DNA from: a virus
Strand: one strand, 5' to 3'
Length of the DNA stretch: 31,623 nt
Virus genome (UHGV): UHGV-0098804
The translations under genes were made by a program, and so were the position numbers. The notes beneath the pieces are model-generated. The model saw only the letters and a list, made by a program, of their open reading frames with translations, did no database searches and was not told where the DNA came from. Numbering within the stretch: position 1 is the stretch's first letter; the number at the start of each line of letters is the position of its first letter. Positions 1 to 28,590 of this stretch are shown here, piece by piece.

Positions 1-150
1 CAGATGAAAAGCCCGCCATAGCCTGGCTGATTGCTAGAGCCTGCTCCTGCTGTGGGGTTTTCGGTGCTGGCGCTGCAGATGAAAAGCCCGCCATAGCCTG
101 GCTGATTGCTAGAGCCTGCTCCTGCTGTGGAGTTTTCGGAGTAGAAGGGG
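1..150 (-). repeat. In-frame 75-bp tandem direct repeat (2 copies, about 55 bp identical) inside the tape-measure-like ORF
   Basis: Positions 1-55 and 76-130 are identical (cagatgaaaagcccgccatagcctggctgattgctagagcctgctcctgctgtgg). Period 75 bp = 25 codons, encoding the repeated peptide PKTPQQEQALAISQAMAGFSS on the minus strand. Confidence 0.85.
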
Positions 151-3100: not shown

Positions 3101-3235
3101 AATAGCGTCAATTATTGCGATACGGTCTTTATTCTCTTTCAAAATAACCTCTCTTTTGCCAGCGGCGATCAACGTTTCCCGGCTTGAGCTTTGTATTTTT
3201 CTTCCAGGGCTTTTGACATATGGAGTGCTCGCCAT
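1..3235 (-). CDS. Large virion protein, tail tape-measure-like; ATG at 3235, 3' end lies beyond window start (partial, >1077 aa)
   Basis: Hand translation of the minus strand from ATG 3235 runs without stop to position 1. The ORF track lists no >=60-aa minus ORF starting here, consistent with an ORF lacking an in-window stop. Gly/Ala/Lys-rich low-complexity stretches, an in-frame 25-aa tandem repeat and position next to tail genes suggest tape-measure or injection protein. An internal block (FARFNTPEEGIRALANQVSSYYNG...) looks like a conserved domain I cannot name. No strong SD before 3235. Confidence 0.55.
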   Translation of the reverse strand, partial: MASTPYVKSPGRKIQSSSRETLIAAGKREVILKENKDRIAIIDAIQGASTNELNALAEIKDAILSGRGSITQLGENQGKVSQRLSRRLIASEPYVSDDAKNTQANPYIKRLPMKKGRTQINNGEERLIVATNTSERVHFASSRQSAQKLKGSVPVAANSAPLEPQSPQSQKGPLRDSNGRFVSQKNNEDIARKKEWQKAHKADAKLQEGFLRKLGSIIGVDGNQSSSEESLTDAAGVGAGGPLWMAARGMYDITKEITGKAESLKEWVEKGKGEASPSKATSPAITYPAVVNTQKATSATAFNNAVETKSAQAVEEQTKILQTNDNKIIDGLENVSDEVVKLRKSVSSGNKFGLSDLWRNRASRRNKINIGDQAGKNKRNKPKRKGRNLGKKALSVGEKAAAGTAAAGAGAGAAKTVKTKVSKAKDISTTSDASKGIAKETKNTAKAVKPAGVVAEEATVKTGETVAKKKTESVALKSAAKIGVKSAASTAARAIPIIGSLAMAGYDAIDGYTDTDAQKAAFGLSDDDAVSEQQKTAYATANVLDMGGLVSGATNLIGKGISALGFERAGEKLQNFDTGDIARGVNGAVDVTKSVFGSLKDTFLSTDENTKQVKKAVEDGTQKTVDAIHSLGEQLQGGRNGEDGVGEHGYTSPTEFSSPANNTIAADLNIGGSNAKNRNYRNNNLGNLVFANQEGATLESPNAKGEQRFARFNTPEEGIRALANQVSSYYNGTSAAAGYQKLQTVSSIISKWAPPNENNTNQYIDNVSKYLGVSPNEKIDVSKPEVMTQLVRAIATKEGGNPAVNNEFIKNALGAFNTNTGRWEGQFSDETLARINKIQKENGGQLIARDSQYSVGRKVKYANGKSPAQPVLNAVPTATQQPIEVAQHAQAVKKPQKTGNQPQPINPENADVNTGSPSSLLERLIAINESGISGASNLFGGAATSLAGTSLDLVKDFALATSFGSISSLSEKAKGMDQALTEKISGLTGKSFGFKKASQVADIATAIQQKRTVNHDTEIIDLLPGDQVSPSTPKTPQQEQALAISQAMAGFSSAAPAPKTPQQEQALAISQAMAGFSS

Positions 3236-3289
3236 TGTGGCAATTGTTCAACGTCACTAACGGGCTGATATCCATACAGAGTCAGGTTG

Positions 3290-4111
3290 TTAATAATGGT
3301 TAGCCATCCATTCAGATCTAATTGATGGGATAAACTCTCTATTGAGAAAGGGGACGTACAGTGTGGTTGTCACATCTGCACCCTCCTTAGCGTTTTTGCA
3401 ATGTTGCGGAGGCAGGATCAGTCGGCTTGAGCCTCTCTCAATAGACATTTTCAGGCCGTGGCGTAGGTCTTTTTGCATAAGCTGTATGCGAGCCACAAGC
3501 GGGGTAAATTCGGTTTCAAGCGCCATGCTTTCAATGATGTCAAAGCGTCGGTTAGCGGCCTGCGTGAAGTCCTCCGGATCGTCTTCAAGCGCCGTGCATA
3601 AAGCGAGTTCAGCAATTCGCATCCGTGCTACGCCAGCACTGTATTCGGGAGTTTTCATATCAGGAAGTGACGCTCGCATTCGTTCAAGGAGTTCCGCGCC
3701 TTTCCCGGTTAATGGTTTAAGTATCCAGTCAGTTGGTACTCCATTTACTGGTACGTTGGTTTTCACGTAAGGAGGTACAGTGAGTATTTCTACTGTTTGG
3801 GCCAGGTCGCTCAGGTTAATATCTGCATGATGCGTATTACCGCAGTGACTGCACTCATAGGAGTAGGTCATTACTGCATCGGGGCGCGAATTAACAAATA
3901 TCCACCAAAGAGCAGTTCTGCGGTCCTGAACTGTCCAGTTAGCACTGTCGTTAATTTCACCATCCTGCATAGAGTTAAGGTACTCTGTAGTCGTTGCCTC
4001 ATCTTCTGCCGGGTTCAGGTCAGAATATTTCAGCGCATCCTTCACGGTAGGGGCGTGGAACTGAATTTCTGTCTCAGGACGGGAAGGCAATGGGAATTTT
4101 GGAATGTTCAA
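3290..4111 (-). CDS. Hypothetical phage protein (273 aa), TTG start
   Basis: Track ORF; GGAGG lies 7 nt upstream of the TTG at 4111; sits between the structural block and the tape-measure-like gene. No family recognised. Confidence 0.55.
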   Translation of the reverse strand: MNIPKFPLPSRPETEIQFHAPTVKDALKYSDLNPAEDEATTTEYLNSMQDGEINDSANWTVQDRRTALWWIFVNSRPDAVMTYSYECSHCGNTHHADINLSDLAQTVEILTVPPYVKTNVPVNGVPTDWILKPLTGKGAELLERMRASLPDMKTPEYSAGVARMRIAELALCTALEDDPEDFTQAANRRFDIIESMALETEFTPLVARIQLMQKDLRHGLKMSIERGSSRLILPPQHCKNAKEGADVTTTLYVPFLNREFIPSIRSEWMANHY

Positions 4112-4219
4112 TTATTCCTCCGAAAAGCAGGTATCTGTTCATTTTCCAGAGGATAGGGAGTGTGTGATTTGCGATGGGGATTGAATGAAGATCTTTGCCG
4201 GTCGAGAAGCGATTATTGA

Positions 4220-4262
4220 GGGTGATTTTTACACCTTAAGTGACGCTACTCACATATCCACA
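4220..4262. promoter_or_regulatory. Origin-proximal elements: inverted iteron-like copy (4220-4237) and DnaA-box-like ATATCCACA (4254-4262)
   Basis: agggtgatttttacacc is the reverse-complement form of the downstream iteron consensus; ATATCCACA matches the TTATCCACA DnaA box at 8 of 9 positions. Confidence 0.35.
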
Positions 4263-4356
4263 GAGTATTTTTATAAACCTTTTTCCATTTTTAATCCTTT
4301 TTAGATCCTTTTTAGGCGTCGCTGGAGCCAGTAGTGGCGCGGGCTGTAGAGGAGGC

Positions 4357-4476
4357 TGGTGTAAGATTTGCCCTCAATTAAATACGATCGGTGTAAGATT
4401 TGCCCTCAGAAGGTGTAAGATTTGCCCTCAAAAGGTGTAGTAATTGCCCTCAAAGTGGTGTAAAAATTGCCCTCAC
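4357..4476 (+). repeat. Five direct iterons (19-20 bp, consensus GGTGTAAGATTTGCCCTCA) upstream of and overlapping the repA start region
   Basis: Copies at 4357-4376, 4389-4408, 4411-4430, 4433-4452, 4457-4476 with about 22-bp spacing. Ends in ATTGCCCTCA like F/RepFIB-type iterons as I recall them. Confidence 0.85.
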
Positions 4477-4499
4477 CATTTGAAGGATCACACAGGGTT

Positions 4500-5255
4500 A
4501 TGAACAGAGCGGAATTAACAGCAAAAGCCGTCAGCCTGATTGAGTCAGCGACACCTATTAGTCGTAGTCTGGCACAAGCCAATGAGATCACGGAGGCTGC
4601 TTATCACCTGACTCGCGACCAAAAGCGACTGTTGTTTATTGTGGTGGGAAGACTTCGCTATGCTTCTAAGGATGGCGTTCTTGGTTCAGGTGCCTGTGAG
4701 TTGACGGTCAACGAATATGCAGAGATGTATAATTTGCCCTCTGCTGAAGCCAGCAAGGATATTCGTAAGGCCATTTCAGGGCTTAGCGAGAAGAAAGTTA
4801 CGATATATAACCCTGATGAATCGACCGAATCAGAAGACAGTTATGAGTCTTATCCCTGGATGATTAAGGATGCCTATTCACCACGGCGCGGGACTTACAT
4901 TATTCATCTTAATCCATATCTCATGCCGTTTTTTACTCTGCTTGATAAGAGATTCACAAGGCTGAATTTTACCGAAGTATCTCGCCTTACAAATCCTTAT
5001 TCTATGCGGCTTTATGAGTCCTTATGCCAGTACAGGAAGGATGATGGAAGCGGCTTTGCCATACTTGGCGTCGAATGGATGCGGGAGCGTTATGGGTTAC
5101 CAAAAAGCTATCAGCGGTATGCCGAATTTAAGAGAAGTTTTTTAACGAAGGCTGTAGCAGAGATTGAAAAAAATACAAAAATGAAAATAGTCTTCTCAGA
5201 GGTGACGGAAGGCGGCAAAGTTACCAGGATAAAATTTACCTATCAGCAGTCTTAA
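4500..5255 (+). CDS. repA: Iteron-binding replication initiator RepA (Rep_3-like), about 251 aa
   Basis: Track ORF 4467..5255; preferred start is the ATG at 4500 (MNRAELTAK...) because the first 11 codons fall inside the last iteron. N-terminal LIESA...LTRDQKRLLFIVVGRL resembles the Rep_3 initiator motif (recalled, not searched). Flanked by iterons on both sides. Confidence 0.8.
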   Translation: MNRAELTAKAVSLIESATPISRSLAQANEITEAAYHLTRDQKRLLFIVVGRLRYASKDGVLGSGACELTVNEYAEMYNLPSAEASKDIRKAISGLSEKKVTIYNPDESTESEDSYESYPWMIKDAYSPRRGTYIIHLNPYLMPFFTLLDKRFTRLNFTEVSRLTNPYSMRLYESLCQYRKDDGSGFAILGVEWMRERYGLPKSYQRYAEFKRSFLTKAVAEIEKNTKMKIVFSEVTEGGKVTRIKFTYQQS

Positions 5256-5546
5256 GGGCAATTTTTACACCCCTCTCAAGGTGTAGAATTTGCCCTTAAC
5301 GATCGGCAATTGAGGGCAATTTTTACATCTTGATTGCATGTATCTCGTTATTAGCAAGTTGTGTTTTTATATAACGTATTGATATGTAAGGATTATGTAA
5401 AAATCGCCCTCAACCAATATCGTGCGTATCGTGCATTCTTATTGCGCTTTTTTATTATCATTCACTGTGTTAACTGATTGATATTATTGAAATATGTAAA
5501 GAATGCCTTCATTGCTGATGGATTGATGATGTAAAAAATGCCCTCA
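5255..5546. repeat. Second iteron cluster downstream of repA (mixed orientation, partly degenerate) with an AT-rich stretch: candidate incompatibility/copy-control locus
   Basis: Iteron-like copies at about 5255-5272 (inverted), 5279-5298 (direct), 5312-5330 (inverted), 5393-5413, 5491-5510, 5528-5546 (degenerate direct); AT-rich 5340-5480. Confidence 0.6.
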
Positions 5547-5636
5547 ACATTGCGCTACCTTCCCTACCCGCTATCGTTGAGGTCGTGGGTGCTGACGGGA
5601 AATGAGCAACCCTCCAGCACACATAATTAAAGCTAT

Positions 5637-6344
5637 TCAGAATTTGATCACTCCACTCACAGCCCCCTTTAACGCGCTTGTAGCCATGCCAGCGGCACCG
5701 TTGACCAAAGCAGAAACACCTGAGCCTGCGGATGTGTATTTCTGGAAAGTGATTGGATATGACAAGAACTCTGACACCTGGTCTCGTGAGCGGGTGATTT
5801 CCCCAAGTTGAGTGGGGAATACGCGCATTTCCTCTTCCAGTTCTTTTCCGCCGTCCTGAGTTACCCGGTAGAGACGGATTTTCATCAGATATTCAGGAGG
5901 AAGGTTTATTGTTCCGTCCGGATTTGTTACGCGAGAACGACGTTCTTTGAACCAGTCCATGATCTTGCCATCTTCGGTATCCCTCACGGTCATAGTGACC
6001 GGTCCGACGCTAACATAGGTTGGCTTGCTGAATTCTACGCTGCCGATCACCTTGCTTTCTGTCTCGATGTTTCCACTGCTGTACGTGATATCCTTCACGA
6101 ACATATCGAAGCCGTTCAGGCCATCCACTTCAACTGTCCATTGCCATCCCTGGGCATAACGGATACGCATAGCGGCAGCAACAATATTTTTCCCGTAGGC
6201 AATATCGCTACTGTAATTCCCGCTTACCCCGCCGCCTGATATGGCTTTATCAAGAATGTCGCTAATGAGGTTGCTGGTGAATGATTTCGTGTTAAATGAC
6301 AATGCGGTGGTCAACGTTCTACCAACGCTGCTGAAAATACTCAC
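5637..6344 (-). CDS. Hypothetical phage structural protein (235 aa), GTG start
   Basis: Track ORF; GGAGG 7 nt upstream of the GTG at 6344; closely packed in the minus-strand structural operon. Confidence 0.5.
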   Translation of the reverse strand: MSIFSSVGRTLTTALSFNTKSFTSNLISDILDKAISGGGVSGNYSSDIAYGKNIVAAAMRIRYAQGWQWTVEVDGLNGFDMFVKDITYSSGNIETESKVIGSVEFSKPTYVSVGPVTMTVRDTEDGKIMDWFKERRSRVTNPDGTINLPPEYLMKIRLYRVTQDGGKELEEEMRVFPTQLGEITRSRDQVSEFLSYPITFQKYTSAGSGVSALVNGAAGMATSALKGAVSGVIKF

Positions 6345-6359
6345 TCTGCGCCTCCAGCG

Positions 6360-6920
6360 TTAAAAAATGGTAGCCCCCGGAATGATTGCCCGGTTTGAAG
6401 ACATTTTTTCCTCAATCTCCTGCACGCGGGCATATAGCGTTGCTTCATCGGGTAGATCGGAGTAGTCAAATTTTCCGTCGATGGACGCTCGCCGCTGCCG
6501 GGCGACATTTCTGACATTGATAAGCGCCTCCAGATACTCCTCCAGCATCCCAATGATCGCTGGCGGCACTTGCCATTCATCCAGCTTTCTGTCGCGTAGA
6601 TTAACCAGATACAGCATCCGAAAAGGCCAGCGTTCTGCACCTGTTAGCTCTAATTCAATAAAGCCGGATAATTCATCCGAATAGACCAGCAGGCCATTGT
6701 TGTCGGTAACATGGACCAGAGAGAGATAATCTTCTGGCAATGGGATTGCCGTGCCACCCTCTTTTTCAAGTTTTAATGTTTTCACTACCCCTGCCCTGTC
6801 CTGATACGTTGTCAGTGCTTTGATCAGGAAGGCTTTCAGCGTTTCTTCTTCACGCACAAGCAGTGGATTAAATCGTGCTTTAACGCTTTCTAATAATTCG
6901 GTTGGTGTCATCGTACCCAC
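6360..6920 (-). CDS. Hypothetical phage structural/assembly protein (186 aa)
   Basis: Track ORF; co-oriented and closely spaced with neighbours; start GTG 6920 or ATG 6911. Confidence 0.45.
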   Translation of the reverse strand: MGTMTPTELLESVKARFNPLLVREEETLKAFLIKALTTYQDRAGVVKTLKLEKEGGTAIPLPEDYLSLVHVTDNNGLLVYSDELSGFIELELTGAERWPFRMLYLVNLRDRKLDEWQVPPAIIGMLEEYLEALINVRNVARQRRASIDGKFDYSDLPDEATLYARVQEIEEKMSSNRAIIPGATIF

Positions 6921-11023: not shown

Positions 11024-12721
11024 TCACTTTTTTTCGTTAACCTTGCCTGTCAGCATGTCGATAGCACCTTCTTTGGCACGAGTCAGACGCAGGCGGGCGA
11101 AATAATTCTCACCGTTGCGCGGGTGGACTTCGTTGATAGCACTACCCCAGAGAGTGGTGCGGTTAACGAGAGATGGATTGGTTTCGTGCACATACGGGAT
11201 TGCTGGGACCGCATCACCAGCGATCAGCCCGGCTTTACCGATGCCTTCACCGCGACCATAGAAATAAATGTCATCCAGACCTAAGTCATATCCCTGAGCC
11301 TTGAATTGCTCACACACAGGCTGCGGCACTTCGTAAATACGAATCGTGCCAAACAGGGTGCCGATGTACTGCACATACGGTGACTGAACGTAGCCCGGCG
11401 CGATTTGGAAGTGCTGTGGAGGCAGAGAACGCAGGAAGTTAGCTGCGTCACCACCTGCGAAGCCACCGCGAATACCTGTGGTCAGGGTGCGGTTTGCCAT
11501 TTCCTGAGACAGGGCGTTTACTGCGTGGCGCAGGAGGCCGACCCAGGACTCATAGTTTTGAGCTTCAGGCAGAGCCACATCAAATTCACGACCATAAACG
11601 GTATGGAATACCAGGGTGCGCAGACGCATGATGTCGGTTTCATGGGAGATCCAGTTCCGCATTGCGGAGAACTGAAGTGCCGCCAATTCAAGGCCGTGTT
11701 CACGGCTTAAATCGGAAGCGGACATTACGGTGTGTTCGGAAGCAATTACGTACTGAGACGGTCGAACTTCATACTTACGCATAGCCTGGTTGATTACCGG
11801 AATCAGGCTTGGATTGCGCTCGATGTTAATTTCGACCTGAACCGCAATTTCAGTCCCTTCTGCTGGCGCTTGAGTGAAGGTAATGTCGATGACACCAGTG
11901 TCATAAGCGACTTTTGCGGTAGCTGAGAATGCATTGCCTTTGCAGTCTTTATCATTGAAATAAAGGTTGCCATCGCCGTCGTCAACCTTGGACGGTTTGC
12001 GGTTGATAAGCAGCTTGTTATAACCAGCACGCAGCGGGCAGGACTGCCCCTCAAAATTTTGGATGTCGAACTGGAAAGTTTTGGTGCTACCGTCCCCTTT
12101 CGTGGAAAGGGTATACAGGCGCTTCATTTGAGAATAAACACCAGCGGACTGCATATTCAGTTCGTCACCTTGCTCGAAGGTGCCGAATTTTGTGCCTGCT
12201 ACGTTGACCAGTTCATAAATATTTGACTCATCACGATCACAAGGAACAAAAGTACAGGCATCACTGGTAGCAGCACCCAGAGAGGCAGGCAGAATTAGTG
12301 CAGCATATTGAGCAACTTTCATTACGCCGTCAGAGCTACGCATTGATTGCGCGACAGACTCAAACATTGCCTTGCCAGTGCCTACGTGTGTATCGCTGGC
12401 ACATTCAGTCATCAGGCGTTCAAGTGCCATGTGTGCGTTTGCCAGGATATCGCTTGCCGGGTAGTGACCATGCTGGCGCTTGTACTCATGCAGAGACATA
12501 GCCCACCCACCAGCGATCTGACGTGCAACCTCTGGATTTACGCCTTCAAACATAGCCTCCTTCTGGATAGCTTTATCCAGGTTCTCCATCATCGCTGCCT
12601 GATCAGCAATCATATTGCCCGCAGCATCGGTGGTCGGATCGACGGTCATAGCCATGACGCTTGCCGCCCGATTCATAATCTCGCGCTCGCGATCACGAGC
12701 TGGCTGAATGTTTTTATTCAC
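11024..12721 (-). CDS. Large virion protein (565 aa): candidate major capsid protein, GTG start
   Basis: Track ORF; first gene of the minus-strand structural run, followed by the Ig-like gene. Assignment by size and order only. Confidence 0.35.
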   Translation of the reverse strand: MNKNIQPARDREREIMNRAASVMAMTVDPTTDAAGNMIADQAAMMENLDKAIQKEAMFEGVNPEVARQIAGGWAMSLHEYKRQHGHYPASDILANAHMALERLMTECASDTHVGTGKAMFESVAQSMRSSDGVMKVAQYAALILPASLGAATSDACTFVPCDRDESNIYELVNVAGTKFGTFEQGDELNMQSAGVYSQMKRLYTLSTKGDGSTKTFQFDIQNFEGQSCPLRAGYNKLLINRKPSKVDDGDGNLYFNDKDCKGNAFSATAKVAYDTGVIDITFTQAPAEGTEIAVQVEINIERNPSLIPVINQAMRKYEVRPSQYVIASEHTVMSASDLSREHGLELAALQFSAMRNWISHETDIMRLRTLVFHTVYGREFDVALPEAQNYESWVGLLRHAVNALSQEMANRTLTTGIRGGFAGGDAANFLRSLPPQHFQIAPGYVQSPYVQYIGTLFGTIRIYEVPQPVCEQFKAQGYDLGLDDIYFYGRGEGIGKAGLIAGDAVPAIPYVHETNPSLVNRTTLWGSAINEVHPRNGENYFARLRLTRAKEGAIDMLTGKVNEKK

Positions 12722-12879
12722 GGTTAAGCCCTAAATTCGGGCGCGGCGTGAAGGTTCTTTTGACGCGCTAACAATACCAACTTTGTGATTTAGTCAATAG
12801 CATTAGTAAAATAAAATCTGTTAACACACGTGTTGTTATGTGGTTTAATTTTAATTTTCTAACACAAATCATTACGGTT

Positions 12880-13272
12880 ATGGCGTATCGGATCTTTGTT
12901 TCGTATAAAAATGGCGCGAAAAGCCACTCCCTGAACACAACGAGCCGCTTTCTTGTTGAGGCGCAACTGGCATCAATTCTTGCTGAAAGTGAGATACTCT
13001 CCCTCGCTGAACGAATCGTCATCCAGTTTTCTGGTAGAGATATTCTTAATGTCCCCGCCCTCACCCCGGCCTCCGAAGTCATGGAATCCATTAAATGGCC
13101 TGTATGTGGATGCCCGGCGAGAGTTGAAGAGCCGGTAACCGCTACGCTCTATATGCCGAAAGCAGTAAGAGACTGGCTTGCTGTGATTGGCAACGGGAAA
13201 GTCAGTGCTGGACTGCGAAAGTTAATTGAAATGGCAGATATTCCAGAGTTAAAAAACGCATGGCGACAATGA
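12880..13272 (+). CDS. Hypothetical protein (about 130 aa; track start 12838, ATG 12880 preferred)
   Basis: Track ORF 12838..13272; the first 14 codons lie in an AT-rich promoter-like region; stop overlaps the next ORF (ATGGCGACAATGA). Confidence 0.3.
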   Translation: MAYRIFVSYKNGAKSHSLNTTSRFLVEAQLASILAESEILSLAERIVIQFSGRDILNVPALTPASEVMESIKWPVCGCPARVEEPVTATLYMPKAVRDWLAVIGNGKVSAGLRKLIEMADIPELKNAWRQ

Positions 13273-13289
13273 GTAAACAGGGGGGCAAA

Positions 13290-13748
13290 ATGAGTCACGC
13301 GAATCCATCAAAAACACAATATCGCTTAATGCTGGCGATCGCGTCAGCTATACCAACCAGCCTGAATCCCCCTGCTGGCTATCCCGCTGTTGTTGATGAT
13401 TGTTTTCAGTATTACGGTGAAGACATTCTGGGACAGTCGAAAGCACTAAAACAGTTGTGCAAAGCCGGGATTCTTCACTGCATAGGCGATCCGGATGATT
13501 TTGTTGTCATGCTGGCAGATCGTGACTCTTTTCTGCTGTCCTGGAAAGCCGGGGCGCGCGAAGCGCGTTTGGGGAATGGCATTGGCTACATAGACTATAG
13601 CGATTGCCCGCTGGCATTTGCTGGTGGATATATGCATTGGCATGAGCGAAATAGAGGCCGTCAGCGTCAGTATCGCTTGAGTGACTTTAACGTCTGTCAC
13701 GGTTTCGAAGAAGCTGACAGCCAGGATATCTGGCTTCAGGAGCCGTGA
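13290..13748 (+). CDS. Hypothetical protein (about 152 aa)
   Basis: Track ORF 13260..13748; AGGGGGG sits 5 nt before the ATG at 13290 (MSHANPSK...), making that the likely start. Confidence 0.4.
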   Translation: MSHANPSKTQYRLMLAIASAIPTSLNPPAGYPAVVDDCFQYYGEDILGQSKALKQLCKAGILHCIGDPDDFVVMLADRDSFLLSWKAGAREARLGNGIGYIDYSDCPLAFAGGYMHWHERNRGRQRQYRLSDFNVCHGFEEADSQDIWLQEP

Positions 13749-14020
13749 TTACCCTTCCCTTCCCAAATCTCCCTATTCCTTTGGTTATTCAGTGCGTTTC
13801 GTTGGTTGCATTCATCGATCGTGCTGAATAACTGTTCAGTGTATGTTGGATACTTGTTTAACAGCACTGGCGTGTCCTCTGGCACCAGACAAGGGTAATA
13901 ATCAATCAGATTTGCCTGCGGCTTGCTGGTGGCTTCTACGGTAATTTTCACTGGCACGCTGGTTGATGGCTTTTGCCCGTTCCCGCTGCATCCTGATAAC
14001 GTCATCAGGCACACGCACAT
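13736..14020 (-). CDS. Candidate o-spanin (Rz1-like outer-membrane lipoprotein) starting inside the i-spanin gene
   Basis: Track ORF 13736..14068 in a different frame from 13902..14375. The internal Met gives MCVCLMTLSGCSG with an L-S-G-C lipobox; the overlapped architecture is classic Rz/Rz1. Confidence 0.5.
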   Translation of the reverse strand: MCVCLMTLSGCSGNGQKPSTSVPVKITVEATSKPQANLIDYYPCLVPEDTPVLLNKYPTYTEQLFSTIDECNQRNALNNQRNREIWEGKGNHGS

Positions 14021-14375
14021 CGTTAATCCCAGCACGGTGTAACGCAGTTTCAAGACGAGTGATTTCATTCTGGCTTTCCTCTCGTTGTTTGATTAGGTTG
14101 GCATTCAGTTCTGCTGTTTTGCGCTGGTACTCCTTTTCCAGTGCTTTAATTCTTTCGTTTTCGGTCAGCATGGCTGAGCGAGCGTTCTCACTTAACTGTA
14201 ATGCGGTAGAAAGCGTGTTGTTCGTGCTTTCCAGTTGTGATTTTGAGTCTTCAAGCGATCGGACATACCTGATGTGTTCGATAACTGCCGTCGTTGTTCG
14301 GTAAATTCCAGAAATGGCTAAAAGCGCAATTACAATCAAAATTATCTTTTTCAAAACCATCCTCTCCAGGTTCAT
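13902..14375 (-). CDS. Candidate i-spanin (Rz-like): N-terminal TM helix plus coiled-coil periplasmic domain
   Basis: N-terminal hydrophobic helix (LKKIILIVIALLAISGIY) followed by heptad-rich charged sequence; overlaps the lipoprotein ORF. Confidence 0.5.
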   Translation of the reverse strand: MNLERMVLKKIILIVIALLAISGIYRTTTAVIEHIRYVRSLEDSKSQLESTNNTLSTALQLSENARSAMLTENERIKALEKEYQRKTAELNANLIKQREESQNEITRLETALHRAGINDVRVPDDVIRMQRERAKAINQRASENYRRSHQQAAGKSD

Positions 14376-14430
14376 TTTTGGTGTTAAACATGTACCAATT
14401 TACATCCTTTTGTGTGCCTAAGTGGTGTTT

Positions 14431-15234
14431 CTATGGTTCCTTTTTGGTGTTCTTTTGGAGCGCATCGATAACGCCTTGTGGCATGATTAAACTGATTGCC
14501 GGACTCATTACTGCATCATCCAGTAGAGAACCAGTTAACGTGATGGCGACAGCGTTCTCTAAACCTTTGGTTGCCTGAGTGGTTGACGTTTTAATGCGAC
14601 CTGTAAGGGCTACGACACCCTCACTTGCTGAGTTAATTTCGGAGAGTAAAACTTCGGCGGCTGTCACTGCTTCCCGTAAAGCATCAATTTCATCCTGAGT
14701 AATGTCCGGAGCCTGTGTTGCCCCTCCACCAGCCTGTCCACCATCACTATCACCACCAGCACTCCCGGCAGCTTCAATTTTTGCGTTTATGGCGTTCATG
14801 GCGGTATTCAGATCGTCAAGTTTCAGCGCCGCCAATGCGTCCGTTAATGATTGCGGCATGGAAACATTCCCCATCCCCTCTACCAGGGCGAACGCTGGCG
14901 CGGGGATCAGTTCATTACCTTTTGCGTGGCACTCCCAGCCAATCTTCATCTGTAACAACTCTGATGGCGTGGTGTATGGGGAAAGAGAGTCAGCCAGTGA
15001 TGAAGAAGACTTGCTGGCCTCATTGAGCTGTTCGGAAAATCCAAGCAATTGAGTCGTCCAGGCCGACACTGAATCAGGATAGGTTTTATCAGGGTGAACC
15101 ATTTCCTGTATTGCGCTCGCGAGTGACGAGGCTTTTGAAGAAGCCCCCCGGCTTATGGTTATTGATTCCGGTGTGGAGGCACCAGCACCAGACAGAATTT
15201 GGAAGGCTTTAACTTCACCTATTGAATCAAGCAT
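14431..15234 (-). CDS. Hypothetical protein (267 aa) coupled to the PAAR-like gene
   Basis: Track ORF; start overlaps the upstream stop (TAATG). Ala/Ser/Gly-rich; no family recognised. Confidence 0.45.
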   Translation of the reverse strand: MLDSIGEVKAFQILSGAGASTPESITISRGASSKASSLASAIQEMVHPDKTYPDSVSAWTTQLLGFSEQLNEASKSSSSLADSLSPYTTPSELLQMKIGWECHAKGNELIPAPAFALVEGMGNVSMPQSLTDALAALKLDDLNTAMNAINAKIEAAGSAGGDSDGGQAGGGATQAPDITQDEIDALREAVTAAEVLLSEINSASEGVVALTGRIKTSTTQATKGLENAVAITLTGSLLDDAVMSPAISLIMPQGVIDALQKNTKKEP

Positions 15235-15518
15235 TATGCGACCTGAAAAATATCCTCGCCGTTAGCGATAACAGAACCACAAGAAAGCGGATCGCCTACG
15301 CAGACTACTCCCTTTCCACCTATTGAATACCATGCCCGTGTCGATACAGCCGATCCGGGATGTGCACTGTTGCCATCTGTATGGCTGGGAAACATGGCAC
15401 CATCCACAACAACTGGCTTACCGTTGACGGTGAACCAGGGAACGGTTTCAGCTACCAGTCGCGGCGGAAATCCTCCGTGACCGGAACAAAGTGTGTCGCT
15501 GGTGGCTATTGCGCTCAT
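15234..15518 (-). CDS. PAAR-like spike-tip protein (94 aa)
   Basis: AGGAG SD 9 nt upstream. Motifs CSGHGG, VNGKPVVVDGA and GDPLSCGSVIANG resemble PAAR-repeat proteins such as T4 gp5.4 and T6SS PAAR (from memory). Confidence 0.55.
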   Translation of the reverse strand: MSAIATSDTLCSGHGGFPPRLVAETVPWFTVNGKPVVVDGAMFPSHTDGNSAHPGSAVSTRAWYSIGGKGVVCVGDPLSCGSVIANGEDIFQVA

Positions 15519-15611
15519 TCTTCATCTCCTGGTTATTCGCCTATTGTCATCACTTTGTTATTTCGTCACTCAAAGAGAGAGTGAAATCACGGAACATTTA
15601 CAATTCCCGTT

Positions 15612-15644
15612 TTGTTCTCAAATTGTTCTCAAATTGTTCTCGCT
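15612..15644 (+). repeat. parC-like tandem 11-bp repeats (ttgttctcaaa x2.7) upstream of parM; more ttctcaaa copies at about 15677 and 15763
   Basis: Direct repeats seen in sequence; in type II partition loci ParR binds tandem repeats flanking the parM promoter. Confidence 0.5.
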
Positions 15645-15795
15645 TCTATCCAAGTGCCCAGCAGGCGATTAAAGATATTCTCAAAACAACCTCAATTATG
15701 ACTCTTATTTATCTCTAATTATGTGGATTTTCGATGCCTTCTCTTTTAAAATCATGATTTGATTCTCAAATGTGTCTCAGAAGTGGAGCAAGAAG

Positions 15796-16752
15796 ATGCG
15801 CATTTTTATCGATGATGGTTCAACCAATATCAAAATGCTGTGGGAGCACGACGGGGAAACTCGCACTCACATCAGCCCTAACAGCTTTAAGCGCGGATGG
15901 TCAGCAACATTTGGTGCTGGCAAGCCGTTTAACTATGTCATTGACGACGAAAAGTATTCGTATGATTTGATCTCGCCAGATGTTCTGCCGACAAATAACG
16001 TGGAATGGCAATACAGCCCGCTTAACGTTCTTGCTGTGCATCATGCTTTGTTGACCAGTGGTATTGAGCCGCAAGAAGTAGAAATTGTGGTTACACTGCC
16101 ACTGGCAGAGTTTTACGACGACGATGCGCAATACAATCTCGCTAATATTGAGCGCAAAAAAGCCAGCCTGATGCGCCCTGTCACGCTGAATAAAGGCAAT
16201 GTATTCACAATTAAGAAAGTTACGGTACGACCGGAGTCTATTCCGGCAGGAATTGGCCTGTGCGACAATCTGAACCCTGCCCATTCTGTTCTTATCGTCG
16301 ATTTGGGTGGAACTACCCTTGATGTTTCAATGGTCGCCGGGCAAATGACGGCAGTTTCCCGTGTTTTTGGCGATTCGAATCTTGGTGTATCACTGGTCAC
16401 CAGGGAAGTAAGGCAAGCACTTGCCAGAGCCAATACCGAAACGTCAAATTACAATGTCGATCAGCTTATTATTAACCGCCACGATGAAGAATATCTGAAC
16501 GACAATATCAATGATCCATCCGCTATTGGTGATGTGAAAAAGGCTATTAGTACAAGCATTGACCGCCTGCGTACTCGCGTTCTTGATGTAATTAGCGACT
16601 TTAAAGGGTATACGCATGTCATGGTGATCGGCGGTGGCGCGCCGCTGGTGGCTGATGCAATTCGCGAGCACGTTAACATTCGTGATGATCGTTTCTTTGT
16701 GGCAGATGATCCGCAACTTGCTCTTGTTCATGGTCTGAAGGCTATCGGTTAA
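15796..16752 (+). CDS. parM: Actin-like plasmid segregation ATPase ParM/StbA
   Basis: Track ORF 15772..16752; ATG at 15796 with GGAG upstream preferred. MRIFIDDGSTNIKMLW...HISPNSFKRGW closely resembles the R1 ParM N-terminus as I recall it. Confidence 0.85.
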   Translation: MRIFIDDGSTNIKMLWEHDGETRTHISPNSFKRGWSATFGAGKPFNYVIDDEKYSYDLISPDVLPTNNVEWQYSPLNVLAVHHALLTSGIEPQEVEIVVTLPLAEFYDDDAQYNLANIERKKASLMRPVTLNKGNVFTIKKVTVRPESIPAGIGLCDNLNPAHSVLIVDLGGTTLDVSMVAGQMTAVSRVFGDSNLGVSLVTREVRQALARANTETSNYNVDQLIINRHDEEYLNDNINDPSAIGDVKKAISTSIDRLRTRVLDVISDFKGYTHVMVIGGGAPLVADAIREHVNIRDDRFFVADDPQLALVHGLKAIG

Positions 16753-18299: not shown

Positions 18300-18420
18300 T
18301 ACCGATTTGATGCCTTATTGGCGTCTATCGTGTACCAGTGCAATAATGGTGTCAAAGTGGCGCCATAATGGTGTTAATATACAGCCATATTGATATCAAA
18401 TTGACACTGTATCGGCATCA

Positions 18421-18446
18421 AAAAGCCCCAGGCGGGGCTTTTTCTA
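18421..18446. terminator. Bidirectional rho-independent terminator between the par operon and the dam operon
   Basis: aaaaagcccc aggc ggggcttttt: GC stem flanked by an A-run and a T-run; overlaps the dam stop codon. Confidence 0.6.
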
Positions 18447-20022: not shown

Positions 20023-20911
20023 CGCCAATGGCCTCCACCAGCGCGTTAAACAGTGCAGATAATTCGCCCGTAAAGAGCACGAAATCAGCATCAAATCGTT
20101 GTGCTACATCCTCCCGGTCGATATCGTCGTTCTGGTCATAGAGATCATCACAGAATGTCAGGGCTTTGATACTCATATCATCGTTGACTTTGAACGACGC
20201 GCGGTCCATCCAGTTAATTGCAACGGTCGTAGCTACTTTCCCCGCCTCAATGTGAGACATAATCTCGTCGGACTGTAGATCAACTTTGTTGCAGCGAACG
20301 GCACCACCATTATCGAGCAGACCCTTTAATGTGGCGTCTTCACCTGCTGTAAATCCGGCAGGGAAGCCGTTTTTAAACCACTCGGTCATTGTAATTTCCA
20401 GCGGTTCGCGTGGTGTGAATGGAATGACAGGCAGGCTGCCGAGCGATTTTCGCAATAAAGCCAGCTGGTCCTCTGCTTTTTTGGCGCTGCTTGCCTCAAC
20501 GAATACCAGATGGTTGCTGCGGTCGATCAGGATTTTTGCGAGTGATTTTCTCGTGAAAGCACGAGGAAGAAGAGAGTGAAGCACTTCATCCTTCAGCGAA
20601 TCTTTTTCGGTCTTCTTCAGCTTTCTGTCTTGCTCTTCTTCAAGTTTCAGGATTTTTTTCTGTAACTCTTCTTTGAGTACTTGAGAAGGCAGGATTTTTT
20701 CCTCTCGTTTATGCTGCATCAGAAGAAAACCCTGGTATTCATGGGTGAGGTTGTCGCCAAGAATTGGGGTCCAACCAGCTTTAGCCATATCCTGAGAACC
20801 GCATGGGGTAAACACAAACTTGCTAAGGGCTGCATTTACTTCTGCAGTATCCCAGCTAACTTCGCGTGAAAGACGATAGATGAAGATATTTTTGAAAGCG
20901 ACTGATCTCAT
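20006..20911 (-). CDS. rdgC: Recombination-associated protein RdgC homologue
   Basis: Near-colinear similarity to E. coli RdgC as recalled (FKNxxxYRLSRExS, [31 protein letters not shown], [15 protein letters not shown]). Confidence 0.85.
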
Positions 20912-20917
20912 GTCTCA

Positions 20918-20961
20918 CCATTTATGTTAGAAAATACACATTAATTATCTAACACAAATGG
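20918..20961. promoter_or_regulatory. Operator-like imperfect inverted repeat (ccatttatgttagaaaa ... ttatctaacacaaatgg) in the 60-bp gap upstream of rdgC
   Basis: Two arms of about 17 bp around a central acacattaatt; a matching half-site (ttttctaacacaaatca) occurs at 12853-12869 upstream of the capsid-like gene. Confidence 0.4.
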
Positions 20962-20970
20962 GTGCATTTT

Positions 20971-21624
20971 CTATCCTTTCTTGAAATCGAAGTTGCCAGC
21001 AGTGGCCTGAAAGGTTCCCCCTGCCTTGAAAGCTATGTTTCCGTTAGCGGTGACAGCAATATTTTCCCCATTAACATTGATGTTGTTGGCTGATTTGACG
21101 TTAACACTCCCTCCTGCATTCACGATTACATCAGCCGGACCAATGATATATATCTGCCCGGACTCATTCATGCCAATCCTTGAGCCTGCTGCCGTATTGG
21201 CAATTTCATAGCCGCCACCAGCAGTTCGTACTTCAAGAATATTGTTGCGGTGAATAACGAAGTCTTTCGTTGCTGAGATTTGGGGGCGGGGAGGTGCTCC
21301 ATCTACTTCCGGCGGCGTCCAGCCGCTACCATTGCCTGACGCCTCCGGCGCGACGTTTGGAACTCCGCCAGGCGCATCCTGAGCTGCGCCAACTATCATT
21401 GGGCGTCTGGTGTCTATTCGACCGTTAACATCTAAATAAGGAAACTCTACCCAGACAAGGTCACCTTTGACTGTAGGTACAAAAGCGTTCCCGATGGGTA
21501 ACAGGTATTCCGCCCAGGGTAGATCGTCATCAGGAACGCCATTCCAGTCAGGTAAAACACGGACTTGAGCACGCATAAGCCCTGCCGGGTGCACAGTTCC
21601 AACAATTTGCGCTCTACGCTTCAT
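20971..21624 (-). CDS. Baseplate central spike protein (gpV / gp5-like)
   Basis: N-terminal pattern (GTVHPAGLMRAQVRV...LPWAEYLLPIGN...KGDLVWVEF) resembles baseplate assembly protein V; C-terminus is a Gly/Asn/Val repeat typical of a beta-helix spike. Confidence 0.5.
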   Translation of the reverse strand: MKRRAQIVGTVHPAGLMRAQVRVLPDWNGVPDDDLPWAEYLLPIGNAFVPTVKGDLVWVEFPYLDVNGRIDTRRPMIVGAAQDAPGGVPNVAPEASGNGSGWTPPEVDGAPPRPQISATKDFVIHRNNILEVRTAGGGYEIANTAAGSRIGMNESGQIYIIGPADVIVNAGGSVNVKSANNINVNGENIAVTANGNIAFKAGGTFQATAGNFDFKKG

Positions 21625-22601
21625 TTGTTAGGCACTCCCAATATCATTCGTGTTGTGTAGCCTACTCGGTCCTCAAAGTGCGCAACATTTTTTACTATCA
21701 GCTTACGGGGCATTGATTCATCAATGCGGTTTTCCTGGTCATAGCGGTATACGATAATCTCTATTACCATCCCCGGTTTTATATCAGGATTGCCTGCGAC
21801 TTCTATATCCATTTTGGGGACGAGAGACAGCTGCATATTGCGAAGAGTTTCCATATCAGAGTCGGATATATAACGCACTGGGAGTGAGCTATCGCCATAT
21901 TCGACGTAGCCATCGGTCATGGAATACCCAACAAAACGATATTGATTCTTTGCTGTTGTCGCATGTTCCTGTTGGAGTAGGCGCATTTTGGACAAAGTGT
22001 ATTCTGCTTTAGGGTTATTCCCCTCGTAGGTAAATGATGGCGTTTGCTTCATCAGATCATCCAGGGTGTAAAAGTTAAATTCCCCCCGGCATACCCAACA
22101 TAATGCACCTTTGTCTCGCGCTATCTCCGAAAGCATTTTTGACGGTTTGTCACCGGCATTCAGATGATATGTAACTGCGCGTTTTAGCACGCTGCTGGTA
22201 ATTTTAAGCTTGCCGGAATATGCCTTGAATATAGCGTCTGGTGTTTTGTTGGTATGTAAATTTGTGCGCGGGGAGGGGATCTTAAACCTGCGCACGTCTT
22301 CACTGACAGCAATAACGGTAACAACATCACCAGCCAGCATTGCAGACGTAACAAAGAAATCTGTTTTAAAAGTGCCTGCATTACCGTTTGGATCGCCCAT
22401 TTCAGCCACCAGCGATGCACCGTATTTGGCTTTCCAGTCATCAATTACGGTGCCGGTAGCGTCATGAATTTCCAGTTTTAGCAAAGGGGCTTTGAGGCTG
22501 GTTTTTTCTACATATACTGCGGTAAAAATCCAGTCTCGTGGCACTTTGTTATCGTTAATGAGCACTGACTGTAGAAAATATTGTTGTAACTCCTGGGCCA
22601 C
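21621..22601 (-). CDS. Hypothetical baseplate-associated protein (326 aa)
   Basis: Track ORF; 4-bp overlap with the downstream spike gene; no family recognised. Confidence 0.45.
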   Translation of the reverse strand: MAQELQQYFLQSVLINDNKVPRDWIFTAVYVEKTSLKAPLLKLEIHDATGTVIDDWKAKYGASLVAEMGDPNGNAGTFKTDFFVTSAMLAGDVVTVIAVSEDVRRFKIPSPRTNLHTNKTPDAIFKAYSGKLKITSSVLKRAVTYHLNAGDKPSKMLSEIARDKGALCWVCRGEFNFYTLDDLMKQTPSFTYEGNNPKAEYTLSKMRLLQQEHATTAKNQYRFVGYSMTDGYVEYGDSSLPVRYISDSDMETLRNMQLSLVPKMDIEVAGNPDIKPGMVIEIIVYRYDQENRIDESMPRKLIVKNVAHFEDRVGYTTRMILGVPNK

Positions 22602-24322: not shown

Positions 24323-24625
24323 ATGACCAAAAAAATTAACATAAAGGATTTCAGGGATGCGTGGCTTGATGATTTTTTTGAATTTTCAACACCACATAGA
24401 AAGATACCTCCTGATATTCATATGACATTGTCACGGAAGTTGGACATTATCAATGCCGCAACTACCTGTAAGGATTTAAGATCACCACCAGGTAATCGGT
24501 ATGAGGAACTGTCAGGGAAGCTAAATGGCTATTCATCAGTAAGGGTGAATAAGCAATATAGGTTAATTTTTAAGTGGGTTAACGGAAAGGCCGAGGACTT
24601 GTATCTCGACCCTCACAAATACTAA
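24323..24625 (+). CDS. higB: HigB-like toxin (RelE/ParE superfamily, plasmid-killer type)
   Basis: C-terminal LRSPPGNRYEELSGKLNGYSSVRVNKQYRLIFKW...DLYLDPHKY matches the recalled HigB toxin pattern (PPGNRLE...SIRIN.QWRICF...DYH); toxin-first gene order; GGAGG at 24305. Confidence 0.75.
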   Translation: MTKKINIKDFRDAWLDDFFEFSTPHRKIPPDIHMTLSRKLDIINAATTCKDLRSPPGNRYEELSGKLNGYSSVRVNKQYRLIFKWVNGKAEDLYLDPHKY

Positions 24626-24695
24626 AACAGATACCCGGTTACGGACCGGGTTCTGACCAGAGTCCACTTAATACGCACGCTAGTAAGGGCAAAAA

Positions 24696-25034
24696 ATGAA
24701 ACAGGCAACCAGAAAACCGACGACCGTAGGTGATATCCTTCTGTACGAATACCTGGAGCCGTTAGAGCTGAAGATCAACGAGTTAGCAGAAATACTTCAT
24801 GTTCATCGTAACACCGTAAGTGCTCTTGTTAATAATAATCGTAAGCTAACGATGGATATGGCATATCGCCTGGCAAAAGCATTCGATACTTCTGTAGATT
24901 TTTGGATTAATCTTCAGACCGCAGTAGATCTGTGGGAAGTCGAAAATGATATGCGCGTTCAGGAAGAGTTAAGTCGTATCAATACTGCTGAAAAATTTAT
25001 TTCTCAGCGGAACCTGAATAAAAAAGCAGCCTGA
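24696..25034 (+). CDS. higA: HigA-like antitoxin (XRE-type HTH)
   Basis: HTH region LAEILHVHRNTVSALVNNNRKLTMDMAYRLAKAFDTSVDFWINLQTAVDLW matches the HigA antidote pattern; immediately downstream of higB. Confidence 0.8.
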   Translation: MKQATRKPTTVGDILLYEYLEPLELKINELAEILHVHRNTVSALVNNNRKLTMDMAYRLAKAFDTSVDFWINLQTAVDLWEVENDMRVQEELSRINTAEKFISQRNLNKKAA

Positions 25035-25312: not shown

Positions 25313-26041
25313 ATGATGTCAGAAAAAGTTACAGATAATCCGTCTATAAATGAAACAGAACTAAAATCATTTTCTGAAATAATAAAAGATAAAATATTTA
25401 ACAAGGTTTTTGCATATGTTGTCATTTCTTTTCTAATTTTTAACTGGAAGGATATTTTAATTATATTAAAGTCAAAGGACGACATCCTATATACATTATC
25501 TATTGTTTTTGTTGGTGGTAATGTCCCGTTCTTTGATAATTGGATTGTATCCCCGTGGGTTTATCACGTTGTAATCCCATTTGTTTATGGAGTATTTGCA
25601 TCTGTGTTAGCTCCTATTCTCACACTGAAGATATCTAAGCTAACAAGTAAATTATACACTGAAATAAGATATTTGGATGAAGTTGCTGATTATGATAAAA
25701 GAATAGAATTGCAAAGAAAGAAAACAAAGTTAAATCAAGCAACCAATGACGCTAAATATTCAAAACAAATCTTAGATGAAAATGAAAATAAACTTAATGA
25801 CCTAGCTAAGAAACAGCGAGAAATTTGTGGCGCGATAAAACTATTGCATACTGATGTTGGCAGTATTATTGAGCTATATAAAAATAAGGGGGTTAGCATT
25901 GAATCTCCGCAAGATTTATGTGATTTTATAGTCGCTATAAAAAGCACATCATTCTATAATGATGACAAGCATTTTAATAAATTGGTGTCTGATATTTCCA
26001 GTTTGTTTGATAATACTGGAATTGATCTTTCAAAAAAATGA
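25313..26041 (+). CDS. AT-rich accessory gene: multi-pass membrane N-terminus plus C-terminal coiled coil (242 aa), function unknown
   Basis: Track ORF with AGGA SD. Composition is visibly far more AT-rich than the flanks. Hydrophobic segments (FAYVVISFLIFNW; LSIVFVGGNVPFF; VVIPFVYGVFASVLAPILTL) then a charged heptad-like region. Confidence 0.6.
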   Translation: MMSEKVTDNPSINETELKSFSEIIKDKIFNKVFAYVVISFLIFNWKDILIILKSKDDILYTLSIVFVGGNVPFFDNWIVSPWVYHVVIPFVYGVFASVLAPILTLKISKLTSKLYTEIRYLDEVADYDKRIELQRKKTKLNQATNDAKYSKQILDENENKLNDLAKKQREICGAIKLLHTDVGSIIELYKNKGVSIESPQDLCDFIVAIKSTSFYNDDKHFNKLVSDISSLFDNTGIDLSKK

Positions 26042-28254: not shown

Positions 28255-28590
28255 AATAATTCCATTCGTGCGTGCAACCTGTGTATATACGCTACACGCA
28301 GAAAGAGTAAAATGCAAGCACTATCCGTATAGACAGAGTTTTTTCGCCACCCTGGAATTTATTGACTGTCAACAAGTGACTTTCATTAATCTTAAGGCGT
28401 GGACCAGCTCGATAGTGAGCTGGGTGTTATTTACCGATCGAATGGATTCGAAAAGATGAATATTTTTAATAAGCTGATTGATTTATTGAATAAATTCATT
28501 AGTGCTTCTTTAACTCAGCAGGTATCCACGTCAGTGTTTTTGTTACTCTTCTACCTGGTATTGAGGGAGTTAACAAAGCTACTAATGTGA

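Follow-up and report, generated by a model that had tools for sequence, protein, structure and literature searches.

A P1-type run of tail-tip genes and a putative overlapped spanin pair in a D6-like phage-plasmid

The viral genome UHGV-0098804, a stretch of 31,623 nucleotides (nt) that is considered here at its full length and called the window, carries on its minus strand a run of four co-directional genes occupying positions 15518-13736. By homology, this run is the D6-lineage counterpart of the phage P1 genes upfC-upfB-ppfA-mlp, and it represents an unannotated example of a known P1 arrangement. The region very probably combines genes for the tail tip (UpfC and UpfB) with genes for the lysis spanins, while the holin and the endolysin would be encoded elsewhere in the genome. 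Phage P1 is known to have this layout, so the finding is an ordinary one. The original prediction for this DNA had placed a PAAR-like gene, a gene for a 267-amino acid (aa) protein, a gene for a transmembrane/helical protein and a lipobox open reading frame (ORF) on the minus strand between 13736 and 15518, and all four are present there. The features on which the argument depends are the following.

15234-15518, minus strand: upfC homolog, 94 aa, PAAR-like (ORF and homology)
14431-15234, minus strand: upfB homolog, 267 aa, all-alpha in its model (ORF and homology)
13902-14375, minus strand: putative i-spanin, 157 aa (N-terminal transmembrane domain, helical domain and matches to Rz-like families of the PHROG collection)
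13736-14068, minus strand: putative o-spanin, an outer-membrane lipoprotein precursor, 110 aa (lipobox, homology to Mlp and the ratio of nonsynonymous to synonymous substitution rates, dN/dS)
13902-14068, minus strand: dual-coding i-spanin/o-spanin overlap, 167 nt (two frames, conservation)
20971-21624, minus strand: gp5 central spike (match to PDB 9vzk_q, 'Gp5')

The element and the four-gene run

Sequence comparison identifies the window as part of a phage-plasmid of the D6-like type (P1 family). In DNA, the region shares 91.7-93.5% identity with Escherichia phage D6 (NC_050154), itself a plasmid prophage related to P1, and across the four genes pSOI121-1 is 99.7% identical; the closest matches over the whole window are 95-97% identical. 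Matches in PLSDB comprise 123 plasmids and no chromosomes, and among 5,426 complete E. coli genomes the region is matched by plasmids of 101 and never by a chromosome. D6 carries the same genes as orf57-orf54 (92-94% DNA identity, with the i-spanin 98.7% and UpfB 88.8% identical), and the difference is one of annotation only: the first two genes are labelled 'similar to P1 gene upfC' and 'similar to P1 gene upfB', orf55 and orf54 are 'hypothetical', and orf54 is given as 73 aa that begin past the lipobox.

The likeness to P1 extends to the four genes, their order and orientation, the 167-nt overlap, and the lack of linkage to holin and endolysin. P1 upfC, ppfA and mlp encode proteins of 94, 140 and 110 aa, and the identity between the two phages is 56% for UpfC, 25% for UpfB (hhalign probability 99.8%) and 31% for the o-spanin and Mlp, whereas the i-spanin of the window has diverged from PpfA past pairwise detection except in its C-terminal ~33 residues. 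In the window the upfC stop codon and the upfB ATG share one base (TAATG). The surroundings also differ. Upstream of the run, the window has parMR where P1 has uhr-hrdC-dmt; downstream, there is no upfA, and two convergent genes of unknown function stand in its place beyond the spanins, at 13260-13748 (plus strand; phrog_8101) and 12838-13272 (plus strand; phrog_7830). The first of these, a 162-aa ORF, overlaps the 3' end of the o-spanin gene by 13 nt. Finally, the endolysin of the D6 lineage is of the TIGR02594 type, whereas that of P1 is the signal-anchor-release lysozyme Lyz. The P1 gene annotation reportedly goes back to Lobocka in 2004, and the P1 spanins are said to have been assigned by Summer et al. 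in 2007.

The order PAAR gene, upfB, gene for a protein with a transmembrane domain (TMD), and overlapped lipobox ORF is found in 36 of 37 relatives' loci, namely those of D6, P1, Cronobacter phage JK004, three plasmids (two from E. coli, about 83% identical, and one from Enterobacter, 69% identical), one Logan contig, and all 29 of the 29 IMG/VR loci that a search with the UpfB profile brought up, the most divergent having 36% UpfB identity. The block persists though its flanks differ, with parABS/repA in P1, parMR in D6 and dam in the Enterobacter relative L009. In L011, which is a distant member of the UpfB family (Logan SRR26958235 contig, 2168-6690; phrog_1559 at E=1.6e-35), four small unknown genes lie between the PAAR gene and upfB, a capsid gene directly follows upfB, and there is no spanin pair. 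Consequently, the four-gene linkage is not universal.

The spike tip

The 94-aa product of the first gene matches UpfC in the PDB (9vyi_A) over residues 1-93 (phmmer, E=8.1e-36) and, in a phmmer search against the same database, gp5.4 of T4 (5iv5; E=1e-5); it also matches phrog_281, 'PAAR motif', at E=2.6e-29. Like T4 gp5.4 and the PAAR tips of type VI secretion systems (T6SS), it consists of a single PAAR domain of ~95 aa. It differs from these in scoring just under the gathering score of the Pfam family PAAR_motif (PF05488; 26.7 bits versus 27) and far under the cut-off of the NCBIfam family T6SS_PAAR_dom (35 bits versus 124). In a cryo-electron microscopy (cryo-EM) reconstruction of P1 published in 2026, UpfC caps the trimeric gp5 spike as a monomer and is the structural equivalent of T4 gp5.4 (PMC12810830). 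The homology to UpfC and to T4 gp5.4 bears out the earlier call of a PAAR-like spike tip, and by this homology the 94-aa protein is a monomeric PAAR cap that would sharpen the gp5 central spike. That spike, encoded at 20971-21624, matches P1 Gp5 in 9vzk (chain q) at E=5.3e-56 (phmmer against the PDB) and is annotated in D6 as 'similar to P1 gene 5'. It lies 5.5 kb from the PAAR gene on the same strand, so that the tip gene, too, stands apart from its own spike.

The 267-aa protein that follows is annotated as 'hypothetical protein' in all sources, and no match to it was found in Pfam, NCBIfam or the PDB sequences; the PDB search with this D6-type homolog thus yielded no UpfB chain. Its residues 1-264 align with positions 1-263 of the 263 in the profile of phrog_1559 (E=1.6e-101), on which P1 UpfB itself scores E=1.4e-134. 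A direct blastp comparison with P1 UpfB gives 25% identity at E=1.6e-20, and the profile comparison that had been proposed for this protein, made by hhalign with a profile of 12 D6-type sequences, aligns it to P1 UpfB over 258 columns with 99.8% probability (E=1.6e-28). (A tblastn search with the 267-aa protein against the phage collection, at E<=1e-5, returned D6 and JK004 only and missed P1; the homology to UpfB is therefore established by the direct blastp, PHROG and hhalign comparisons.) The family is small, with only 74 clusters found when a hidden Markov model search was run against 1.84 billion representative proteins. Leaving aside one outlier in length, P0086, whose 1917 aa match only across a low-complexity linker region, its members are either fragments or single-domain proteins no longer than 265 aa, none of them with a fused catalytic domain. 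'Fusion glycoprotein F0, Fibritin' constructs, which came up in a phmmer search at E=0.02, were rejected as a low-complexity alignment of Gly/Ser linkers.

An AlphaFold2 model of the 267-aa protein has 10 helices and no strands (predicted local distance difference test score, pLDDT, 81; predicted template modelling score, pTM, 0.73) and consists of helical bundles plus a disordered, Gly/Ser-rich linker at residues 161-172. Its structure matches are generic helical bundles only, with no enzyme fold, and the invariant residues of the family are mostly hydrophobic or small, with no recognised motif of a catalytic type. In the P1 virion, UpfB was assigned by cryo-EM to a novel alpha-helical 'tripod' anchored on the PAAR tip (PMC12810830), and a second 2026 paper repeats this assignment (PMC13611949). 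T4 differs here, since UpfB is an extra partner with no established T4 equivalent; T4 gp5.1 has been proposed as such, by modelling only, in one 2026 paper (PMC13611949). Because of the UpfB homology, the tripod assignment in P1, and an all-alpha model that matches only generic bundles, the 267-aa protein is best regarded as a structural component of the tail tip and not as an enzyme. In this phage, by analogy with P1, the homolog would sit on the PAAR tip as a decorating 'tripod'.

The putative overlapped spanin pair

The 157-aa protein encoded at 13902-14375 has a hydrophobic segment near its N-terminus (Kyte-Doolittle 19-mer score of 2.48 at residues 6-24, placing a TMD at about residues 9-25), with K9, K10 and also R5 on its N-terminal side. 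It is accordingly predicted to be a type II (N-in, C-out) inner-membrane protein with a single N-terminal TMD. In an AlphaFold2 model built from a 7-sequence alignment (mean pLDDT 87), a helix at residues 2-114, which includes the TMD, is followed by a hinge at 115-123 and a second helix at 124-153; this helix-hinge-helix model fits the layout of an i-spanin. In the best heptad phase, 48% of the a/d positions are hydrophobic versus 31% overall, which is a weak test. The protein matches several PHROGs annotated as 'Rz-like spanin' (phrog_214 at E=2.2e-15, phrog_89 at E=9.5e-7, and phrog_2466), and P1 PpfA also matches phrog_89 and phrog_214. It had been said that the spanin call would suffer if the transmembrane/coiled-coil protein matched a non-lysis family; both proteins of the pair match Rz-like spanin PHROGs and no other functional class. 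Two alternative starts are available, at M6 (14360; the choice of the Prokaryotic Genome Annotation Pipeline, PGAP, in relatives) and at a TTG (14354; the choice in the GenBank entry of D6). A 46-aa ORF that overlaps the i-spanin start (14251-14391, minus strand) was rejected as non-coding, with dN/dS above 2 in an alternative-frame control.

The o-spanin ORF begins at 14068, within the i-spanin gene but in a different frame. The two genes overlap by 167 nt and the second runs 166 nt past the i-spanin stop, which places the pair in the 'overlapped' class of spanins. The N-terminus of the 110-aa product reads MKSLVLKLRYTVLGLTMCVCLMTLSG followed, after the cleavage point, by CSG, and so comprises a basic n-region, a hydrophobic core and an L-S-G-C lipobox. 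The signal peptide corresponds to residues 1-26 (14068-13991), the lipobox TLSGC starts at residue 23, and Cys27 is encoded at 13990-13988. The lipobox check that had been suggested was made by a rule-based test, in which the Ser at position +2 and the absence of Asp there were consistent with sorting to the outer membrane. Cleavage would leave a mature protein of 84 aa that contains 7 Pro and, besides Cys27, two conserved Cys (C60 and C87).

Homology supports the reading of this ORF as the counterpart of P1 Mlp (31% identity, E=5.7e-8). In an alignment of 8 D6-type and P1-type o-spanins, P1 Mlp included, L-S-[GA]-C-S is invariant, and the full set of invariant positions is L, LS, C, S, C60, P63, E64, P74, N88, N91 and N98. 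The protein matches phrog_456 (E=7.5e-5) and the P1 Mlp family, phrog_30284 (E=3.4e-4); a match to Pfam O_Spanin_T7 is sub-threshold, and a search of NCBIfam with the spanin pair matched nothing. (Bednarek et al. [PMC9025707] swap the labels of the two P1 proteins; in the P1 locus, at 11355-11943, it is Mlp that has the TLSGC lipobox and PpfA that has the N-terminal TMD.)

Failure of the lipobox ORF to persist in relatives had been named as grounds for doubting the pair; the ORF, its start and the L-S-G/A-C motif are retained by every one of the 36 pair-carrying loci, even where protein identity falls to 28%. In the part of the o-spanin gene that lies outside the overlap, dN/dS in its own frame is 0.09 against the relative L007 and 0.20 against L008, versus more than 2.5 in the control frame, and in the i-spanin-only part it is 0.22, versus more than 2 in the control frames. 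The overlap encodes the C-terminal helix of the i-spanin together with the signal peptide, the lipobox and the first 29 mature residues of the o-spanin. It is the most conserved DNA of the locus: against L007 the synonymous rate is depressed in both frames (0.15-0.17 versus 0.52-1.08), and against L009, the most distant relative, the overlap is 73% identical in nucleotides while its flanks are 49-58% identical. The overlap length of 167 nt recurs in P1 ppfA/mlp and in 19 IMG/VR loci. Both overlapping frames are real genes under selection.

Existing annotations obscure this pair. GenBank D6 orf54 starts at Val38, past the lipobox, although the full 110-aa ORF is intact in D6 DNA (D6 locus 15237-15569); PGAP omits the o-spanin from the RefSeq record of pSOI121-1 (at about 38687-39019 of the extracted locus); and gene_24 of JK004 is truncated to 44 aa. 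Under-annotation of overlapped o-spanins has been documented, with 196 of 528 missed and 64 given wrong starts (Kongari 2018).

The arrangement resembles that of other overlapped two-component spanins, such as P2 LysB/LysC and, as the functional prototype, lambda Rz/Rz1, in having a type II helical inner-membrane protein and an out-of-frame gene for an outer-membrane lipoprotein that extends past the i-spanin stop. Such a combination, with a helix-hinge-helix form for the type II TMD protein, is regarded as the diagnostic spanin architecture (Kongari 2018). The window pair differs in that its i-spanin has no Cys at all while its o-spanin has two conserved periplasmic Cys, in the length of the mature o-spanin (84 aa versus 40 in Rz1), and in lying outside any lysis cassette. 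Taken together, the architecture, the Rz-like PHROG matches, the conservation and the low dN/dS values uphold the original description of an i-spanin/o-spanin-like overlapped pair.

Scattered lysis genes, rival readings and significance

The original prediction had also observed that no endolysin or holin adjoins the pair, and this holds for the whole 31.6-kb window. A hydropathy scan of all window ORFs of at least 45 aa detected no small gene with multiple TMDs other than antisense ORFs, and PHROG scans of the unknown window ORFs returned no lysis family. The sole peptidoglycan-active gene in the window is that of the tape-measure/transglycosylase protein Sit (1-3235), a virion protein. In relatives, by contrast with the window, a check for the holin and endolysin genes did locate them, at distant loci. 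D6 has lydA/lydB (holin/antiholin) at 30.7-31.5 kb, a TIGR02594/endolysin-like gene at 19.3 kb and the spanins at 55.1-55.7 kb, and in pSOI121-1 the TIGR02594 gene (47.35 kb) comes first, followed by the holin (60.8 kb) and then the spanins (about 84.7-85.3 kb). In both, the spanins are 24 kb from the holin/antiholin and 36-37 kb from the endolysin, and no other spanin candidate adjoins the holin or endolysin in D6-like genomes. The lack of an adjacent holin or endolysin in the window would thus be explained by their being encoded at two other loci of the genome, in the scattered layout seen in P1. For P1, this organisation has been called atypical (Bednarek et al., PMC9025707); the accepted P1 spanin genes, ppfA and mlp, were assigned from predicted features, partly overlap, and belong to an operon that is not linked to the remaining lysis genes (PMC9025707). 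The lysis passages of a paper on D6-like Salmonella plasmids describe modules of a peptidoglycan hydrolase and LydA/LydB, and spanins are not mentioned in those passages (PMC6799933).

The mechanism that is proposed for the run has two parts. At the tail tip, the PAAR cone of UpfC would cap the trimeric gp5 spike, and UpfB, by its homology to the P1 protein, would bind to this cone as a helical 'tripod' with a structural, non-catalytic role; upon sheath contraction, the UpfC/UpfB tip would then reach the host envelope ahead of the rest of the virion. In lysis, the i-spanin would be held by its N-terminal helix in the inner membrane, with its two periplasmic helices extending outward, while the o-spanin would be cut by signal peptidase II between LSG and Cys27, receive a lipid on that Cys, and be carried to the outer membrane by the Lol pathway, so that the two proteins could join through the peptidoglycan mesh. 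After removal of the wall by the holin and the endolysin, the pair would fuse or disrupt the outer membrane, and we infer that this is its function at the end of lysis. The holin/antiholin (of the LydA/LydB type) and the endolysin would be supplied from two other loci, as in P1. The tip and lysis functions are unrelated in mechanism; both are presumably expressed late in infection, and the four genes are likely to be co-transcribed at that time.

Several points weigh against this account. A scan of 13300-15900 for sigma-70 promoters and terminators found no more than chance, and the pattern of the P1 LP23-type late promoter has no match upstream of upfC; consequently, a single operon that is expressed late is something that we infer. 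For P1, promoters designated P1ppfA and P2ppfA have been predicted. The i-spanin has no curated match in Pfam or NCBIfam, and the Pfam Rz family (Phage_lysis) was not returned. Furthermore, hhalign finds no significant similarity between it and lambda Rz, a full-length blastp comparison with P1 PpfA is non-significant (E=0.27), and hhalign aligns only 33 C-terminal columns with PpfA; given the hhalign results, membership of the Rz family by sequence is not claimed. Spanin activity is experimentally unverified even for P1 ppfA/mlp (PMC9025707), and knock-down of P1 mlp, ppfA, upfB and upfC by CRISPR interference left plating on the K-12 strain BW25113 intact, in a screen in which lambda Rz scored as essential (PMC10695390). 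As for the tip, the P1 tripod is an AlphaFold3 model of UpfB fitted into medium-resolution density (PMC12810830), and the stoichiometry differs between the two reports ('three trimeric tripod' in PMC12810830 versus 'three copies of UpfB' in PMC13611949). Lastly, the holin and endolysin of the source genome are placed by analogy with its relatives, whose identity is 92-97% for most of the window and reaches 99.7% in the four-gene region (pSOI121-1).

Some of these points favour a different role for the pair, in which the TMD protein and the lipoprotein would be envelope proteins that serve the tail tip or infection, through superinfection exclusion or through assembly or targeting of the PAAR-UpfB tip, and would not be spanins. 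Such a role would explain why the pair travels with the tip genes and not with the holin or endolysin, and why its linkage to upfC/upfB is so tight (36 of 37 loci) despite differing flanks; it would also accommodate the lack of a curated family match and the fact that spanin function rests on prediction, with silent mlp and ppfA knock-downs in P1. It is nevertheless improbable, given the several 'Rz-like spanin' PHROG matches with no other functional class, the diagnostic architecture of the pair, the absence of PpfA and Mlp from the proteins identified in the P1 virion reconstruction (PMC12810830), and the lack of any other spanin candidate by the holin or endolysin of D6-like genomes. Moreover, spanins are dispensable under many laboratory conditions (PMC9025707). 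A related idea is that the near-universal PAAR-UpfB-spanin linkage reflects a functional connection and not just common late expression, such that the pair or UpfB acts at entry as well, or that the tripod is a membrane-active, fusogen-like device. Its support is the linkage itself, which survives rearrangement of both flanks, and nothing beyond that, and we give it little credence.

The 267-aa protein had also been suggested to be an unrecognised lysis or tail-tip enzyme, which would supply the wall- or membrane-degrading activity missing beside the spanins. In favour of this are its lack of an annotated function in any database and of a Pfam match, the position of its gene between the piercing tip and the lysis genes, and the fact that P1 gp5 is without the lysozyme domain of T4 gp5 (PMC12810830). 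The suggestion is contradicted by the homology to UpfB, which in P1 belongs to the virion and was assigned to helical density at the tip (PMC12810830, PMC13611949), by a model made up wholly of alpha-helical bundles and a disordered linker with no catalytic match, and by invariant residues in which no catalytic motif is recognised. In addition, the Sit transglycosylase already provides peptidoglycan cleavage at entry, and endolysin candidates are present elsewhere in relatives. An enzyme here is thus very unlikely. The remaining alternative, that the lipobox frame is open by chance, within or beyond the 157-aa gene, and that a single membrane protein is encoded there, could draw on its omission by PGAP in RefSeq plasmids, on the 73-aa D6 call that starts past the lipobox, and on the sub-threshold O_Spanin_T7 match. 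Conservation and selection already refute it, through retention of the ORF, start and lipobox in every pair-carrying locus, the dN/dS of 0.09-0.20 in the ORF's own frame, and the exceptional conservation of the overlap, while the documented under-annotation of overlapped o-spanins fits the omissions; its probability is negligible. The original prediction had posed an either/or, namely that the 267-aa protein is an enzyme or that the spanin call is wrong and these are tail-associated membrane proteins. Its description of the locus stands, but the dilemma was a false dichotomy in which both horns are wrong, since the UpfB homolog appears to be structural and the spanin call survives.

Four observations concern other parts of the window. 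The divergent upfC-parM intergenic region contains direct repeats of TTCTCAAAT(TG) at 15615-15641, 15677-15685 and 15762-15778, including two tandem copies 11 bp apart, and these probably serve the ParMR partition system as its parC centromere/operator iterons. At 18300-18444 the window lacks glnS (glutaminyl-tRNA synthetase), whose counterpart in D6 is at 20074-21735 of the D6 locus. In D6, pSOI121-1 and many relatives, glnS separates the ParA-like operon from DNA methyltransferase genes; at the point where the window lacks it, the alignment to at least one relative (NZ_CP115379.1) runs through in a single piece. Further along, the gene at 25313-26041 (plus strand), whose 242-aa product has two hydrophobic segments and matches phrog_8191 (function unknown), lies within an island of low GC content (0.33 versus ~0.47 elsewhere), next to a HigB/HigA-like toxin-antitoxin pair at 24323-25034; this gene looks like an acquired moron. 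Finally, an exact copy of the P1 LP23 late-promoter pattern, AAGTGACTT-N4-TANNNT, is found at 28374-28392 (plus strand) between the gp26-like and mat-like genes. It is the one exact match in the window, versus a shuffle mean of 2.6, and is within chance.

The scientific weight of the four-gene run is small, as it follows a known P1 arrangement in which every part has a described counterpart. Its value is chiefly for annotation, because the spanin pair and UpfB are 'hypothetical' in the D6-like phage-plasmids that are widespread in E. coli, Salmonella and Shigella. The divergent UpfB, at 25% identity to that of P1, offers a second system in which to test the 'tripod' lately proposed for the PAAR tip, and once the spanin pair and UpfB are recognised, the lysis gene set of the D6-like lineage is complete.

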